Origin: Enterobacteria phage Aplg8
Sequence record: NC_054902.1
Direction: 5' to 3' (one strand)
DNA length: 64,000 nt
Under the pieces are notes generated by a model, which had not been told where the DNA came from, did not search any database, and was given only the letters and a program-made list of their open reading frames with translations. Position 1 is the first letter of the stretch. The number at the start of each line of letters is the position of its first letter. This document shows, piece by piece, positions 33,101-59,621 of the stretch. The position numbers and the translations under genes are program-made.

Positions 33101-33131
33101 TTTGTGTTCCTCATGTTATGTCAGTAAGACT

Positions 33132-33160
33132 ACTATAACACAACACGAGGGACTTGTAAA
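33132..33160 (-). promoter_or_regulatory. sigma70-type early promoter (GTTTACA-N17-TATAGT), copy A of duplicated cassette
   Basis: minus-strand reading TTTACA agtccctcgtgttgtgt TATAGT, followed by a leader with GAGGA. Confidence 0.6.
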
Positions 33161-35218
33161 CTACATTTTGAACTTTTTAGACATTCCGTTGATGTTAACC
33201 AAAGAAGCTAAGATTTGAGAAACTTCGTTTTCCTCTTCTTTTGATTCTTCTACAAGGAATTGATTAAATCCAGCCATTAGACGAACTTCACCAGTTTCCA
33301 TTAGATGGTCGCCATCATATACTGATTCCTCTAATTGTTCAGAAGGAGGAACGATTGTACCTTCGATTAGATACTTGTTATAAGCAGTTTCTTTCATAAA
33401 GTAAGTACTTACTTTATTAATCTTCAGTAAAATTCCACGTGGTAGAATAACTTCAGCTTCTGATGGAAATCCTGATAAATGACCCGGAACGATAACTTTG
33501 ATTCGCTCAGCTCCTTTAATTACCATACCCACGCTAGTTTCAGCATCTTCATTAGCATATGTAGAATGACTACCCATATGCATCAAATCTTCTGCATCAA
33601 CGGAACCTTCTCCTTCACCAGAAAATACTGCTCCGGAATCATCTAAGGCCATATAATTTTTACCATACTCACCAAAGATATTTGGTTTAAGTGATGTCGA
33701 TACGAAGTTCTTGAAATAGAACATTTTATTTTCAATGTTATGACGCAAAGTTTTAAAAGTAACTTCTTGTCCACGGTAAAGTGTAGTTCCTGGAGGAAGA
33801 ACTGAACCTTTAGCGAATGCAGAATCAAGCGTCTCAATATGTTTAATAGCTCGTTCCATATATTCTTCACGGGTAGAATCTGGTTTACCCAAAAGGAACG
33901 AGTTCATTTCAACATATGAATCTGCGCAATAATCTTCAATTACGTCAGATTCAGCCTGAGTTAATCCTTTTGGAGTTACTTCGGTGCTTGCATATTCATA
34001 CGCCTGAGCAGCGGATTCATCAATTAATTTATAAATGCCATTCATGACAAATTGAATAATAGCTGTCTTTTCATCTGGCGTAGCTTTAGAACCTTTAACT
34101 AAATCATTGACAATTTTCTTAATAACATCAAAGCTATTAGAAATATTAATGTCAGCAAGATCGCTTAAAATTTTATCAGTTTTATAATCAAAAAATTCTT
34201 TATTCTTTAAATATTCTTGAGAACTTTGATATGTTATATCGCTCTGCAACTTGATAGATGGATCACGTAAACGTGCATGGGCTAATGCAATATGATTTCG
34301 GAAGCTTTCTAGTTCATAATCGTTAGATTTAAAACGAGAAGCACTTCTCATACCACCGATAGCTCCTTTGCTGAAGTTTGAACCAATCTGAATAACGCCA
34401 GAGTTCATTGGTCCTTCTGCTTTATATACCGGAACTTTAGATTCAAACTCTTGATATTTCTTAGCAGCGAAGCTATCACCCTGAAGTGAAGCATCAACAG
34501 TAGAATATTGAGCTTGTGCTGCTAATCGACGACTAATTTTAGTTTTCTGAATAACAGCTTGATCCGTACGCTTATCATTTTCTAAAGCAATAGAAGCAGC
34601 AACTGCGACAGCTTTAGGAACAGCATTACCTGTTTTAACGTCTACATAAACATCACCAACCTTTGATTCAACTTTTGTGAATAACTCAGTTGAAATAGGA
34701 GGTACACCTGGAATGTCTTCTAAATTGGCATTTTTACGGTAAACCATAATATATGCATATTTCTTATCATAGTCCCAGATTTCCTTTAAAAGAACATATC
34801 GACCTGCTCCTTTAGTACGTACTAAACGGTCAGCAATAACTTGCATTTGACGAGCTGCGCCATTTGTTTTACTCTTTAGTACGCGGAATAAGCATGCATC
34901 AATTTTATACTGTTTCATTGTTTGAAGAGCAGTATCAAAAACAGCATTAATGACGCCAATTGGATTTCCACCTAAGTTTTTAAGTTTAACTAATGATAAT
35001 TTCTCGTTGACACCTATCATTACGATATGCATCATTTTGTCGCCTGGCTTAACGTTTTTATTCGTATCACCGCCAGAGGTGTATGTACAAAATCTAAATC
35101 CAGGAAGCACGCTTTCTTCACCGGCTTGAATAGCAAAAATTTGAGGTATTTTATGCTTAGGATTTAAGTTAACAACCGGCGCCGAAGCGCCGTCAAATAA
35201 TTCTGTAATAAGTTCCAT
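33161..35218 (-). CDS. Alt-like ADP-ribosyltransferase paralog (T4 alt.-2/alt.-1 position)
   Basis: 685-aa ORF; N-terminus MELITELFDGASAPVVNLNPKHKIPQIF parallels Alt; C-terminal R-S-E motifs (LYRGQ, FVSTSL, SEAEVILPRG). Confidence 0.8.
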   Translation of the reverse strand: MELITELFDGASAPVVNLNPKHKIPQIFAIQAGEESVLPGFRFCTYTSGGDTNKNVKPGDKMMHIVMIGVNEKLSLVKLKNLGGNPIGVINAVFDTALQTMKQYKIDACLFRVLKSKTNGAARQMQVIADRLVRTKGAGRYVLLKEIWDYDKKYAYIMVYRKNANLEDIPGVPPISTELFTKVESKVGDVYVDVKTGNAVPKAVAVAASIALENDKRTDQAVIQKTKISRRLAAQAQYSTVDASLQGDSFAAKKYQEFESKVPVYKAEGPMNSGVIQIGSNFSKGAIGGMRSASRFKSNDYELESFRNHIALAHARLRDPSIKLQSDITYQSSQEYLKNKEFFDYKTDKILSDLADINISNSFDVIKKIVNDLVKGSKATPDEKTAIIQFVMNGIYKLIDESAAQAYEYASTEVTPKGLTQAESDVIEDYCADSYVEMNSFLLGKPDSTREEYMERAIKHIETLDSAFAKGSVLPPGTTLYRGQEVTFKTLRHNIENKMFYFKNFVSTSLKPNIFGEYGKNYMALDDSGAVFSGEGEGSVDAEDLMHMGSHSTYANEDAETSVGMVIKGAERIKVIVPGHLSGFPSEAEVILPRGILLKINKVSTYFMKETAYNKYLIEGTIVPPSEQLEESVYDGDHLMETGEVRLMAGFNQFLVEESKEEENEVSQILASLVNINGMSKKFKM

Positions 35219-41660: not shown

Positions 41661-41687
41661 TTTTATTCTCCGAGATGTTTAATTGCG

Positions 41688-41726
41688 GTACAGGTATATA
41701 ATATCATATCCTGTACCAAAGTAAAC
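41688..41726 (-). promoter_or_regulatory. early promoter (GTTTAC-N17-TGaTATTAT) with -10 inside an 8-bp inverted repeat
   Basis: plus GGTACAGG tatataatatcatat CCTGTACC; minus-strand -35 GTTTAC at 41721-41726, extended -10 at 41698-41706. Confidence 0.55.
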
Positions 41727-42061: not shown

Positions 42062-42085
42062 TTTATTCTCCTTTGTTTGTGTAAG

Positions 42086-42118
42086 ATAATACTATCACAA
42101 AGGAACCATACTGTAAAC
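42086..42118 (-). promoter_or_regulatory. early promoter (GTTTAC-N18-TGaTAGTAT)
   Basis: minus-strand reading GTTTAC agtatggttcctttgtga TAGTAT upstream of the 110-aa ORF. Confidence 0.5.
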
Positions 42119-42145: not shown

Positions 42146-42166
42146 AAAGGACTCCCGAAGGAGTCC
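42146..42166 (-). terminator. intrinsic terminator GGACTCC-TTCG-GGAGTCC + U-tract (minus strand)
   Basis: plus strand AAAAAAGGACTCCCGAAGGAGTCC just past the stop of the basic 58-aa ORF. Confidence 0.7.
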
Positions 42167-42171
42167 TCAAC

Positions 42172-45096: not shown

Positions 45097-45135
45097 GGTA
45101 GAGCTATAATATCACAACTCTACCGTAAAGTAAAC
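45097..45135 (-). promoter_or_regulatory. early promoter (GTTTAC-N18-TGaTATTAT) with -10 inside a 7-bp inverted repeat
   Basis: plus GGTAGAG ctataatatcacaa CTCTACC; minus-strand -35 at 45130-45135. Confidence 0.55.
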
Positions 45136-45616: not shown

Positions 45617-47009
<1,393 letters not shown>

Positions 47010-48383: not shown

Positions 48384-48411
48384 AAAGTCCTCATGTTATG
48401 TCAGTAAGACT

Positions 48412-48440
48412 ACTGTAACACAACACGAGGGACTTGTAAA
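48412..48440 (-). promoter_or_regulatory. sigma70-type early promoter (GTTTACA-N17-TACAGT), copy B of duplicated cassette
   Basis: 53/54 identical to the cassette at 33108-33161; directly upstream of the alc start. Confidence 0.6.
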
Positions 48441-48444
48441 CAGC

Positions 48445-50059: not shown

Positions 50060-51238
50060 TTAAAAGTATTTTTTAAAACTCATCATAACTTTATCATCAA
50101 CATCATTATCAATCTGTGCAACAAGATAAGATGACAGCTCTACTTCTTGCGGTGCAGATTGAACATTATCAGAATTAAGATATTCACGAATCCAAGGATA
50201 TGGATGTTTAACCGGAGCATCGGTAATTGGGCATGGAAGACCACACTGTTTCATACGAGATACAGTTAAGTAATCAATAAAGCTCCACATGCTATTTGTA
50301 TTTAATCCAGGAACATCGCCATCTTTAAATAAATGAACTGCCCAATCTTTTTCTTGGCGGTTAACTTCCATGAAAATATCAACTGCTTCTTGTTCACACT
50401 CTTGAGCAATTTTAACCCATTCATCGCCATCAGTACCAGATTGAAGTTGACGAATAATATATTGGGTGCCTTTAAGGTGAAGCTGTTCATCGCGTGCAAT
50501 GAACTTCATAATCTTGGCATTACCTTCCATGATTTCCATGTTCTTATGGAAGTTAAAGGTACATGCGAAAGATACATAAAAACGAATAGCTTCCAATGCA
50601 TTGATTACATGCAAACAGAGGTAAAGAGATTTCATTAGCTCACGCTTCCAATATGTCTCATGCTCAATAGCATCTTCAATAACGTCTTCGTCTGCATTAA
50701 TTTCTTTTTGGTATTCGATATCAGCTTTAGCGTTTTCCCAATAACGAGTTTTAATCAGAACATCATCATAATAACGTCCAATGGATTCAGCACGTTTCAT
50801 AATAGCTTCATCTAATACAATTTCATCAAATACCTTCGATGGATCAGTATAAAGATTTCGCATGATATGAGTATATGAACGACTGTGAATAGTTTCACTA
50901 AAAGTCCATGTAGCAACCCATGTATCAAGGCTTGGGTCTGAAATTAATGACATAAGTACAGCAGATGGCGCGCGACCCTGAATGCTATCTAAAAGTGATT
51001 GATACTTCAAGTTGTTAGTAAAAATATTTTGCTGATACTGAGGAAGCTTATTAAACTGTGCAGCATCCATCATCAAGTTTACTTCTTCGGGACGCCAAAA
51101 AAATGATAAAGATTTCTCAATAAGTTCTTCAAATACTCTATGTCGTTGAATATCATATCGAGCTAAACCCAATCCAGAACCAAAAAACATCGGCTCAGTC
51201 AAAATATTAACAGGGGATGTATTAAAAACTGTGCTCAT
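50060..51238 (-). CDS. nrdB: ribonucleotide reductase small subunit (uninterrupted)
   Basis: 392-aa continuous ORF with di-iron/tyrosyl radical R2 features; no intron. Confidence 0.93.
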   Translation of the reverse strand: MSTVFNTSPVNILTEPMFFGSGLGLARYDIQRHRVFEELIEKSLSFFWRPEEVNLMMDAAQFNKLPQYQQNIFTNNLKYQSLLDSIQGRAPSAVLMSLISDPSLDTWVATWTFSETIHSRSYTHIMRNLYTDPSKVFDEIVLDEAIMKRAESIGRYYDDVLIKTRYWENAKADIEYQKEINADEDVIEDAIEHETYWKRELMKSLYLCLHVINALEAIRFYVSFACTFNFHKNMEIMEGNAKIMKFIARDEQLHLKGTQYIIRQLQSGTDGDEWVKIAQECEQEAVDIFMEVNRQEKDWAVHLFKDGDVPGLNTNSMWSFIDYLTVSRMKQCGLPCPITDAPVKHPYPWIREYLNSDNVQSAPQEVELSSYLVAQIDNDVDDKVMMSFKKYF

Positions 51239-51968
51239 AAATTTTCCTCTTTAAAATTCTGCCGCGTTTCCAACCTGGCGGTATAATATCATCTTTACCT
51301 ATAAGCGTGCATTCACTTCCATTATTAATCCATTTCTTACCGCGGATTCCTTTATAATCTCTTGGTTGTATTTTATCAAACTTTGCATCAAGTTGATATG
51401 ACCATCTAAATCCATAGGCATATTGAAATTTACCCTCAGCACAATATTTGATATTTGACCCGTTTCCATTAACTGACCTGGACGCTGCCGCAATAGAGTG
51501 AAAGGTTTCTATGAAATCCCCATCTAATGAGAATTTATGTATTTCGATAGATGGGCATGCATACCTATTCACGTTTGATACATGTTGTTTAGTTTCGTTT
51601 TTATGATGCTTGCCTAACATTCCTCTAGGATGAGGATTATTTTTCCAATATTTCTTAAAGAAATCAGAATTAGCTTTAGCAAATAATTTTCTGTGCAAGC
51701 TATACAATCTGTTATTAATTCTATTACCAGCTTTATCTGTTGCCATTAACGTTAACGCAGAGGCAAGCCCAAAATGGCCTTCATTTATCTTACATAGTAA
51801 TAGATGCGCTATAAAATGTTCTCTAGCTGTTAATTCAACTAAATTTTCTTTATCATCAGAACCTCCCATGCATTTAGGGACTATATGATGTGTCTCTTTA
51901 TATTCAGATAAAGGTTCCCGAGCCTGAGCTCGGGAAATTAGGTCATTATAGATTTTTTGATAATTCAT
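51222..51968 (-). CDS. mobE: HNH homing endonuclease (MobE-like) between nrdA and nrdB
   Basis: 248-aa ORF; HNH motif HHIVPKCMGGSDDKENLVELTAREH; C-terminal basic DNA-binding region; ATGA overlap with nrdA. Confidence 0.75.
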   Translation of the reverse strand: MNYQKIYNDLISRAQAREPLSEYKETHHIVPKCMGGSDDKENLVELTAREHFIAHLLLCKINEGHFGLASALTLMATDKAGNRINNRLYSLHRKLFAKANSDFFKKYWKNNPHPRGMLGKHHKNETKQHVSNVNRYACPSIEIHKFSLDGDFIETFHSIAAASRSVNGNGSNIKYCAEGKFQYAYGFRWSYQLDAKFDKIQPRDYKGIRGKKWINNGSECTLIGKDDIIPPGWKRGRILKRKIYEHSF

Positions 51969-54786: not shown

Positions 54787-55647
54787 TTACACCGCCATCT
54801 TTCCTTTAATAGGAGGGTGTGATTCATAGTTGTTAAGAATAAAATTATGCGGCTTTGCGAATTGACTCAACCAAAATACCTGCGATTCTGTGTCCCATTC
54901 ATCAAATTCATCTGGAAATTTTAATTGCAATTCGCATAAATCCATAGGTTCACGACGCAAAATTTCTTTACATTGCTCTACGTGATTCATATAGATATGA
55001 GTATTACCACCAGAAAATATCAAATCTCCGGGAATAAGATTACACATCTTAGCTACAATATGCGTCAAGGCAGCGTACGAGGCAATGTTGAATGGCAAGC
55101 CCAAGAAAACATCTACACTTCTTTGGTACCACTGCAAATCCAAATAGCCATTACGCACATTAAACTGATAGAACATATGACAAGGCGGTAATGCCATATA
55201 TTTAAGTTCAGCTGGATTCCACGCAGAAACAATTTGACGCCTATCATTCGGCAGTTTTTTAATACGATCAATAACTTCTACAATTTGGTCTACACCGCCA
55301 AAATCACGCCATTGTTTTCCATAAATTGGACCAAGTTCACCGCTATGGTATCCTAAATCTTTTGCCTGATTTTCGTAATTTTCATCCCAAACTGTTTTGC
55401 CTTGGATTAATGAATCATGCTGAATTAATCGTAAATCATTGACATTTGTGCTTCCTGACAAAAACCATATTAACTCAGCAATGCATGCATTCCAGGCGAG
55501 CTTTTTAGTTGTTACTGCAGGAAAACCTTTGGTTAAATCCCAACGCAATTTAGTACCGAACAAAGCAATTGTTCCTGTGCCTGTTCGGTCATCGGTTTCA
55601 TAACCATTTTCAAAAATGTCTTTAATTAAATCTTGGTATTGTTTCAT
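54787..55647 (-). CDS. td: thymidylate synthase (uninterrupted)
   Basis: 286-aa continuous ORF; active-site region PPCH..FYQ; no intron. Confidence 0.96.
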
Positions 55648-55684
55648 TTAGTACCTTATATAAATTATAATACATTTTATGAAG

Positions 55685-56050
55685 CTAATAATTAAACGGT
55701 TTAGCATCAAATTTTCTCTCAATTTCAGGCGTGAAATATAATTCTTTACCGCGTTTGGAAAAACGACCAATAATATGATAATTATTCTCATCAAACGTGA
55801 TATTGCCGATATCCATAGCTTTCAACCAAATATCGATATTTCTGTCAAGCTTTATATCAAAATTCCAATACGGAGAACTATTACCAAAAATACTGCAAGC
55901 GGATTCAGTGAAACAACTGCTATAAATTTTGTCTTTAGGAACTATTAATTGATAGACGCCTTTAATAAACTGAGGACCTTGCCATTTTGGTTGTTTCGCG
56001 TCTTTTTCTAATAGAATAGGGTAATAATTAAAATTCATATTTTCCGCCAC
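55685..56050 (-). CDS. hypothetical protein inserted between frd and td
   Basis: 121-aa ORF filling a 411-bp gap between the frd stop and the td start. Confidence 0.6.
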   Translation of the reverse strand: MAENMNFNYYPILLEKDAKQPKWQGPQFIKGVYQLIVPKDKIYSSCFTESACSIFGNSSPYWNFDIKLDRNIDIWLKAMDIGNITFDENNYHIIGRFSKRGKELYFTPEIERKFDAKPFNY

Positions 56051-56058
56051 GTATTATT

Positions 56059-56881
<823 letters not shown>

Positions 56882-56885
<4 letters not shown>

Positions 56886-57241
56886 ATTACCTCCCACTGA
56901 AAGGGGCCAGAAGCAAATCCGCTATCTTTAATCATTTTAACTAAAGTTACCATTCCTCTGTTAACTGCTTGCGCGATTTCATCAAAAACTTCATCACTAT
57001 CACCATAAAGATCGCTAAAAAGTTCTAACACATTCTTCTGAACTTTTAATTTACAGCCAACAAATTCGCCTACAGTAAATTCGTTTCCGCCAACTCCAGC
57101 GTAAAACGTAATTACACCAGTTAATGGTCTTTCACTAGAACATAGGTCGTGTGATAAATTAATATAAGCCGTCCCGGGTACAGTTTTAAGTTGGCAACGA
57201 ATACTTACTCGAGCAATTCCAGCTACATGAATGTCAGACAT
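56882..57241 (-). CDS. hypothetical protein (T4 frd.2 position)
   Basis: 119-aa ORF. Confidence 0.6.
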
Positions 57242-57494: not shown

Positions 57495-57515
57495 TTTATT
57501 CTCCTTAGTTGATAA

Positions 57516-57549
57516 GGCTATAGTATCACTACCATAGCCTGTTGTAAAC
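57516..57549 (-). promoter_or_regulatory. early promoter (GTTTAC-N18-TACTAT) with -10 inside a 10-bp inverted repeat
   Basis: plus GGCTATAGTA tcac TACCATAGCC; minus-strand -35 at 57544-57549. Confidence 0.55.
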
Positions 57550-57551
57550 AA

Positions 57552-57854
57552 TTATTTTTGAATTTTATCAAGCCACTTACCAAGCTTAATCATTTCTTTA
57601 GTAGCCTTTTCCATACTTCTGAACTTAACCAATAGAGGATAGGTATCGACACCCATAACTAAGCTAGTTACAAGACTGTGTTCACCCACAAGCCATAACG
57701 AATACGTTTGAATATCGAGCCCGTAATTTCTGTCTTTATGGACCCGTACACCCATCACTTCAAATTTCTCACTAGCTTTTTCTACCGCATCCAGGAAATC
57801 ATCTTTAGTCATATTAGGCCTTAAAAGTTTTTCGCAAAAGTTCAATGATTTCAT
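57552..57854 (-). CDS. hypothetical protein
   Basis: 100-aa ORF; the start may instead be the ATG at 57812 (TAA-ATG junction with the upstream ORF). Confidence 0.5.
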   Translation of the reverse strand: MKSLNFCEKLLRPNMTKDDFLDAVEKASEKFEVMGVRVHKDRNYGLDIQTYSLWLVGEHSLVTSLVMGVDTYPLLVKFRSMEKATKEMIKLGKWLDKIQK

Positions 57855-59522: not shown

Positions 59523-59600
59523 TTTTATTTCCTTTTTAATTTAATTAACAGTTGGTGCTATGACGATGTATGACCTCATAGCTGGTCAGTGAGATAATTA
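59523..59600 (-). promoter_or_regulatory. gene 32 autoregulatory translational operator (pseudoknot + A/U-rich unstructured leader)
   Basis: minus-strand leader ...GACCAGCUAUGAGGUCAUACAUCGUCAUAGCACCAACUGUUAAUUAAAUUAAAAAGGAAAUAAAAAUG: nested complementarity GCUAUGA/UCAUAGC and UGACC/GGUCA, then UUAAAUUAAA repeats before the AUG. Confidence 0.65.
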
Positions 59601-59621
59601 TAATTTATTTATAATAAGCAA

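Follow-up and report, generated by a model that had tools for sequence, protein, structure and literature searches.

Stem-loops enclosing the -10 element of early promoters in a T4-like phage genome, and their probable place on read-through RNA

Why should the -10 hexamer of a phage early promoter lie inside an inverted repeat? Three such promoters had been pointed out in the genome of Enterobacteria phage Aplg8 (NC_054902.1), of which we analyzed a stretch of 64,000 nucleotides (the window, to which all coordinates refer unless T4 is named). A preliminary description of the three sites offered three roles for the repeats: operators for a dimeric regulator, cruciform-prone promoter DNA, or processing sites in read-through transcripts.

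A 6-kb stretch around the sites is 97-98% identical to many Tequatrovirus (T4-like) genomes, and by this identity the window is itself a Tequatrovirus genome. Comparison with the T4 reference places site 1 between genes 30.8 and 30.7, site 2 in the cd.3/cd.2 interval and site 3 upstream of frd.1, a gene 96% identical to T4 frd.1 in a tblastn search. All genes involved are on the minus strand, and the minus strand is therefore the sense strand at each site. The 30.7 and cd.2 cassettes of the window are identical to those of T4. That the sites are early promoters was borne out independently at two of them, because the site 2 promoter is Pe133295 in the curated T4 record and the site 1 promoter was marked as a T4 early promoter by the annotators of phage SA21RB.

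The comparison with T4 also revealed differences elsewhere. Missing from the phage are mobE, segG and two group I introns, those of nrdB and td, together with I-TevIII and I-TevI; the differences fall at window positions 50562-50565, 51238-51799, 55095-55100 and 59585-59621. Additional small ORFs were found in the td/frd interval (55650-56051), in the frd/frd.1 interval (56660-57183) and beside pseT (46711-47008). In the gap between the annotated frd.1 and frd.2 genes of T4 (L001), positions 146015-146083 of the minus strand encode an unannotated hydrophobic ORF of 22 codons, MFAPYIMAAVMLVCLYLLIKAC, with a good Shine-Dalgarno (SD) sequence. It lies directly downstream of the hairpin-bearing T4 early promoter 146143 and is also present in two other genomes of our collection (L021 and L032); in place of this module, the window has the site 3 cassette and an ORF of 100 codons (57552-57854).

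The promoter motifs and inverted repeats described earlier are all present on the minus strand, at the following positions.

41721 to 41726, minus strand: -35 element GTTTAC of site 1, the early promoter of gene 30.7; identical to T4 129918
41698 to 41703, minus strand: -10 element TATTAT of site 1, preceded by TGa, 17-nt spacer; predicted start at about 41691, within the 3' arm
41686 to 41718, minus strand: hairpin of site 1, with 8-bp perfect arms GGTACAGG/CCTGTACC (41687-41717); layout GTTTAC-ttt-GGTACAGG-atatgaTATTATata-CCTGTACC
45130 to 45135, minus strand: -35 element GTTTAC of the cd.2 early promoter (site 2)
45106 to 45111, minus strand: -10 element TATTAT of site 2, with TGa before it and a spacer of 18 nt; homology to T4 133295 puts the start at A 45099
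45097 to 45124, minus strand: hairpin of site 2, with 7-bp perfect arms GGTAGAG/CTCTACC; layout GTTTAC-tttac-GGTAGAG-ttgtgaTATTATag-CTCTACC
57544 to 57549, minus strand: -35 element GTTTAC of the frd.1 early promoter (site 3)
57520 to 57525, minus strand: -10 element TACTAT of site 3, with TGa before it and a spacer of 18 nt; start predicted at about 57513, just beyond the 3' arm
57515 to 57540, minus strand: hairpin of site 3, with a 7-bp perfect repeat AGGCTAT/ATAGCCT; layout GTTTAC-aac-AGGCTAT-ggtagtgaTACT-ATAGCCT

Some details differ from the preliminary description. The repeat of site 1 is real, but it begins at 41687 rather than 41688. The repeat of site 3 is also real, although its perfect Watson-Crick part comprises 7 bp and not 10; the 10-bp version, GGCTATAGTA/TACCATAGCC, contains an A·C mismatch on the plus strand, where the sense strand has a G·U pair. 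At site 3 the -10 hexamer, given before as TATTAT, reads TACTAT.

The three sites follow one pattern, GTTTAC-N17/18-TGn-TA(T/C)TAT with an inverted repeat spanning the -10 element. An independent consensus scan flagged the TG before the -10 at each of them, and an AT-rich stretch lies just 5' of GTTTAC (agtaaaataatt, ggcaatttaaca and tcaaaaataatt). Judged by these motifs, the sites are sigma-70-dependent early promoters of the T4 type fused to a stem-loop. The 5' arm of the hairpin is placed in the spacer of the promoter, the extended -10 and the -10 hexamer fall in the loop, and the 3' arm runs roughly from -5 to +5. The core that two of the loops were said to share, TAATATCA on the plus strand, reads TGATATTA on the minus strand and comprises the TGn of the extended -10 together with the first bases of the -10 hexamer. 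As sense RNA, site 1 folds into a stem of 14 pairs around a loop of 4 nt (dG -16.1 kcal/mol, z -5.1), site 2 into 12 pairs, three of them G·U, with an AUAU loop (dG -16.3), and site 3 into 11 pairs, one of them G·U, with a GUGA tetraloop (dG -15.6).

At all three sites the stop codon of the upstream gene (30.8, cd.3 and the ORF at 57552-57854, respectively) ends 2 nt before GTTTAC, the junctions being at 41729-41726, 45138-45135 and 57552-57549, so that the AT-rich upstream element of the promoter lies within the preceding coding sequence. The stem, 11-14 bp as RNA, follows the stop codon by about 10 nt. On the other side, the SD and ATG lie 25-37 nt past the -10, and the stem ends 20-25 nt before the ATG. 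Of the spacings from stop codon to -35 seen in T4 early promoters, 2 nt is the commonest: 6 of 40 have it, and another 7 lie within 3 nt.

Are the repeats more than a by-product of promoter sequence? Nine minus-strand GTTTAC-N17/18-TAnnnT sites occur in the window, and a perfect repeat of at least 7 bp spans the -10 at four of them, where 0.36 would be expected (P=0.0005) from a null in which both hexamers were kept fixed and the remaining sequence was shuffled; a repeat of this kind spans only 6% of window positions taken at random. The observation is thus genuine, and the shuffled-sequence control that had been proposed for it shows that chance does not account for the repeats. The original count of three was too low, since a fourth perfect repeat, of 8 bp (42069-42104, TCCTTTGT/ACAAAGGA), spans the -10 of the gene 30.8 promoter. 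As RNA, six of the nine promoters (57549, 48441, 45135, 42118, 41726 and 33161) form a hairpin that encloses the -10, with dG of -12 to -19 kcal/mol. The cassettes other than sites 1 to 3 are listed below.

42068 to 42118, minus strand: fourth instance, early promoter of gene 30.8 with hairpin (GTTTAC at 42113-42118, TAGTAT at 42089-42094)
33105 to 33161, minus strand: early promoter cassette with a hairpin that encloses the -10 and pairs with the SD, dG -17.5
48385 to 48441, minus strand: early promoter cassette upstream of alc with a hairpin that pairs with the SD, dG -18.8

The cassettes at 33161 and 48441 are twins, about 15 kb apart and near-identical over about 53 nt, GTTTACaagtccctcgtgttgtgtTA(T/C)AGTagtcttactgacataacatgagga, each with a hairpin of 12 pairs that involves the SD of the gene downstream; T4 has the same twin cassettes at 123093 and 136336. 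The SD of gene 30.8 likewise lies inside the 3' arm of its promoter hairpin. From the end of the stem to the ATG there are 6-9 nt at these three cassettes.

A genome-wide search for GTTTAC promoters with flanking repeats, one of the checks suggested for the three sites, was run on T4. It returned 40 minus-strand promoters of this type, near the published number of early promoters, and 19 of the 40 have a hairpin with at least 7 pairs enclosing the -10 and a dG of -10 kcal/mol or lower. The mean folding z was -2.45 for the 40 promoters and -0.28 for random sense segments (Mann-Whitney P=7e-7); z fell below -3 at 14 of the 40, compared with 4 of 120 controls, and lies between -4.5 and -5.9 at our three sites. 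The hairpins take two forms. In one, 16-36 nt separate the 3' arm from the start codon and the SD is free (30.7, cd.2, frd.1 and the ip genes); in the other, the 3' arm pairs with the SD (30.8 and the twin cassettes 33161 and 48441). Hairpins were commoner where the upstream stop codon abuts the -35 element (12 of 18) than where the spacer is longer (4 of 14; one-sided Fisher P=0.04).

The idea that the repeats simply fall out of an AT-rich promoter consensus has some footing, because TGnTAYTAT is partly self-complementary when G·U is allowed, so that part of the inner stem is forced by the promoter sequence, and because, as given above, a repeat of at least 7 bp spans 6% of random positions in the window. 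This explanation is nevertheless scarcely credible against the excess of four over 0.36 in hexamer-preserving shuffles (P=5e-4), the folding z at the three sites, the genome-wide excess in T4, and a conservation across genera that includes compensating changes.

We compared the folding of the two strands. The sense strands of sites 1, 2 and 3 (-16.1, -16.3 and -15.6 kcal/mol) are each more stable than their antisense counterparts (-15.0, -9.1 and -10.9), and the antisense folds are weaker because the extra pairs are G·U. At site 1 the two strands are nearly equal, so that the evidence for a bias comes from sites 2 and 3 and from the genome-wide statistics. Among the 40 T4 promoters, sense was more stable than antisense both in energy (paired Wilcoxon P=7e-5) and in composition-corrected z (P=5e-4), and G·U makes up 32 of 237 stem pairs. 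When DNA parameters were used, the hairpins of the three sites were weak, about -5 to -8.4 kcal/mol.

The pairing is also conserved in relatives. The core of site 1, GTTTAC-ttt-GGTACAGG...CCTGTACC, is invariant while its flanks diverge into three unrelated contexts, and the first inner pair occurs as A-U, U·G or U-A. In the site 2 stem of the Mosigvirus HX01, position 4 has G·U instead of A-U and position 8 has U-A instead of U·G, and the element folds at -16.9 kcal/mol in sense and -8.1 in antisense. The site 3 element, including its G·U pair, is invariant in phages whose frd.1 protein is merely 72-76% identical, and two further genomes (L026 and L027) carry another hairpin, around TATAAT, at the position of site 3. 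In Dhakavirus, Gaprivervirus and Marfavirus, both spacer and promoter are absent at the cd.2 relatives, which therefore contribute no covariation. An apparent alternative stem in EcS1 (Kagamiyamavirus) was discarded because its putative -10 overlaps the start codon. A search with Rfam 15 covariance models at the gathering score gave no match anywhere in the window.

One feature of the T4 record deserves separate mention. The 14-nt loop of the cd.2 hairpin (NC_000866, 133300-133313) is annotated there as 'inverted complement of previously reported sequence'. We considered a natural inversion of the loop at site 2 and rejected it, because the inverted loop matched only a partial entry of 1985, X03007.1, and more than 400 modern genomes have the loop in the promoter orientation. 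From this distribution, the inverted version is a historical sequencing error at a hairpin, and not a flip-switch.

Where transcription starts decides which RNA can carry the hairpin. In T4 the start, 133295, falls on the fifth base of the 3' arm and seven nt past the -10. When the starts of sites 1 and 3 were placed by the same rule, those predicted for the three sites lay at -2 to +5 as counted from where the 3' arm ends. Because the start lies in or after the 3' arm, a promoter's own transcript cannot form the hairpin, and only RNA read through from upstream can. The hairpin is not needed for promoter function, since about half of the T4 early promoters work without one.

We think it probable, though well short of certain, that the hairpin acts on read-through RNA as a gene-boundary structure, by attenuation or 3'-end protection, while the promoter restarts transcription with an unfolded leader. 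Transcripts of the upstream gene would carry a stable hairpin of 11-14 bp about 10 nt after the stop codon. This hairpin could attenuate or pause read-through transcripts; alternatively, it could block 3' exonucleases, so that the upstream message would end in a protective stem. The promoter would then restart transcription and supply the small gene downstream with an unstructured leader. A secondary role at the level of DNA, proposed in the literature, is that the 60-70 bp of similarity between cassettes could provide patches for homologous recombination, which would shuffle small genes. Of the three roles originally offered, the one on read-through RNA has fared best, in the form of structure in read-through transcripts; from strand bias and start position, we infer that a role in RNA, whether it takes the form of attenuation or of stabilization, is the most likely one. 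A literature search of T4 start-site and 3'-end maps yielded no transcript 3'-end or stability data for these sites.

A broader reading, which we offer tentatively and with more doubt than belief, is that the promoter hairpins of T-even phages are not terminators but a genome-wide marking of transcript origin, in which RNA from upstream is folded and locally started RNA is not. About half of the early promoters would be built in this way, with the fold lying beside the translation start at 30.7, cd.2 and frd.1 and over the SD at 30.8, alc and alt.-3. If this were true, the translation, the sensitivity to RegB or RNases, or the decay of small early genes would be set by the promoter from which the transcript originates, and the hairpin would in addition serve the upstream message as a cap that keeps out 3' exonucleases.

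Against a gene-boundary structure in RNA stands the alternative that the repeats have no function in RNA, and are patches for recombination and shuffling at the level of DNA, as in the mini-circle model of promoter-early stem-loops (PeSLs), or scars. We consider this unlikely, although several observations agree with it. Homology of many more distant phages (SP18, F2, mar005P1 and others) to the 30.7 region ends at the first base of the -35 element, 41726, which is consistent with a mosaic junction at the promoter cassette. The invariant core of site 1 is found in three unrelated upstream contexts, cd.3 and the promoter are absent in four relatives (L016-L019), and homology between the window and T4 breaks 7 nt from the site 3 hairpin, whose cassette resembles the T4 ipI and ipII promoters (78-79% similarity). 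Mini-circles have been detected in RB49 and phi1 (PMC2839356). However, the sense-over-antisense folding bias and the G·U-preserving substitutions would be unexpected for a DNA-level element, and the stems differ between cassettes and therefore add little homology. Promoters hold 2 of the approximately 20 breakpoint ends relative to T4, a clustering that is not significant, and the other ends are at introns, homing-endonuclease genes and other indels. The hairpin of site 1 is always linked to gene 30.7 and is thus not a freely moving cassette. We also scanned our collection for GGTACAGG-N12-18-CCTGTACC, regarding the hairpin as a candidate mobile cassette, and discarded this idea because the matches were mostly chance palindromes; all 11 matches with a T4-type promoter context sit upstream of gene 30.7. 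Recombination at these cassettes is weakly indicated in the window, and a role of this kind may coexist with the role in RNA.

If the stem-loops were efficient terminators, each cassette would be a full stop followed by a restart, isolating each small gene. The hairpins do sit about 10 nt past the upstream stop codon, WebGeSTer listed the site 1 hairpin as a rho-independent terminator in phage SA21RB, and the stem-loop of PeSL211/210 of RB49 cut lacZ expression about as much as rrnB T1 did (PMC2839356), but that assay, the sole published one for termination, concerned a GC-rich RB49 stem-loop and not one from a T-even phage. The preliminary description had denied that the repeats are plain terminators on the ground that U-tracts do not follow them, and we agree on both counts. 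The tails of the three sites, CAATTAAA, AAAACAAA and TATCAACT, have 2, 0 and 3 T in 8 positions, and the 19 T4 promoter hairpins have no U-tract either, their A-rich tails having a mean of 1.5 T of 8 and a maximum of 4. Because no hairpin is joined to a U-tract, efficient intrinsic termination is unlikely. A terminator scan skipped the promoter hairpins, yet it found a canonical terminator near the 30.8 promoter.

42147 to 42168, minus strand: canonical intrinsic terminator with a 9-bp GC-rich stem, GAGGACTCC-UUCG-GGAGUCCUU, and a T-run

This terminator lies about 30-50 nt upstream of the 30.8 early promoter and is annotated as a terminator in SA21RB. The phage thus uses textbook terminators where there is room in the spacer, unlike the promoter hairpins with their missing U-tract. 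Moreover, early and delayed-early expression in T4 depends on long read-through transcripts (PMC2988021). Taken together, these data leave full termination at the cassettes distinctly unlikely.

The two DNA-level roles of the preliminary description survive less well. Extrusion of a cruciform or hairpin that modulates open-complex formation would suit perfect arms of 7-8 bp on either side of the melting region, and hairpin promoters are known elsewhere, as in those used by the virion RNA polymerase of phage N4. We regard it as very improbable here, since the DNA hairpins are weak (-5 to -8.4 kcal/mol, with loops of 12-15 nt if G·T pairs are not counted), duplex -35 and TGn elements are required by the sigma-70 holoenzyme of the host, promoters of identical class function without repeats, and the asymmetry between sense and antisense would be left unexplained. 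An operator, through which a dimeric DNA-binding regulator would shut off or modulate early promoters, could draw on a dyad centered on the -10, a classic repressor position, and on the fact that T4 early transcription is off within minutes by means incompletely understood (PMC2988021); it is largely refuted, and barely tenable as a reading, because there is no common half-site, the arms being unrelated (GGTACAGG, GGTAGAG, AGGCTAT and TCCTTTGT, with many others in T4), the half-site spacing varying from 4 to 20 nt, the extended stems needing G·U pairs (numerous at sites 2 and 3) that are mismatches in DNA, and half of the early promoters having no repeat.

The hairpins are best understood by comparison with known systems. 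REP-type hairpins are stem-loops that stabilize 3' ends in polycistronic bacterial mRNAs. By analogy, a hairpin between cistrons that has no U-tract could halt 3' exonucleases and make upstream and downstream segments differ in stability; the elements described here have no sequence relation to REP-type hairpins and differ from them in overlapping a promoter. With intrinsic terminators they share a stable sense RNA hairpin a few nt after a stop codon, but not the U-tract, their tails being A-rich. The annotators of SA21RB recorded the 30.8/30.7 spacer as a predicted terminator overlapping a T4 early promoter, a case in which automatic tools mislabel the spacer as a rho-independent terminator. 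We suggest that such hairpins be labeled promoter/stem-loop cassettes, and not operators or, without evidence, terminators.

Similar in logic are the T4 hairpins that hide ribosome-binding sites in early read-through RNA and contain an internal promoter, at e, soc, 49 and I-TevI (PMC3014915). In both, the promoter lies within the region of the 5' arm or loop, so that its own transcript would be without the 5' arm and read-through RNA would be folded. In the classic cases, however, a late or middle promoter holds the internal position and the SD or start codon is paired with the 3' arm (PMC3014915), whereas our three sites are early with the SD free, and pairing with the SD is seen only at the neighboring cassettes 42118, 33161 and 48441. 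The ip loci of T-even phages are flanked by conserved promoter/hairpin elements (Repoila et al. 1994, as far as relayed in PMC2839356), described in that account as T4 early promoters with AT-richer stem-loops of variable size. The T4 ipI and ipII promoter cassettes have repeats of 7-10 bp around the -10, and the similarity of the site 3 cassette to them extends over about 65 nt; the loci here, 30.7, cd.2 and frd.1, are not ip genes.

The nearest relatives are the PeSLs themselves, described in RB49 and phi1 by Arbiol et al. 2010 (PMC2839356), who highlighted G-T pairs in the stems, found that one stem-loop lowers downstream lacZ expression, and proposed that the cassettes mediate recombinational shuffling of small genes. 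Cassettes of the T4/PST pair are catalogued by Comeau et al. 2014 (PMC4122927), with the consensus TTTACW-N17-TAYWAT, which the promoters here match, and PST has the same 30.7 and cd.2 loci. All structural features of a PeSL occur at the three sites: an AT-rich stretch, an early promoter, a stable stem-loop between the -35 and -10 or overlapping the -10, and an intergenic place in a plastic early region, where a small gene (30.7, cd.2, frd.1) follows with its SD and start codon. The stems of RB49 and phi1 are polyG/polyC, and one of them blocks downstream expression; those described here, known from sequence, are of mixed sequence, weaker and free of U-tracts. By this set of features the three sites belong to the published PeSL class, and the novelty implied at the outset gives way to a genome-wide, published feature of T4-type phages (PMC2839356, PMC4122927). 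What the U-tract-less hairpins of T-even phages do to read-through RNA is the question of research value here, and the sense bias across 40 T4 promoters and the link with abutting stop codons make a boundary role in RNA testable in a classic phage. If true, this role would refine an element that is already known, the PeSL, and would reveal no new kind.
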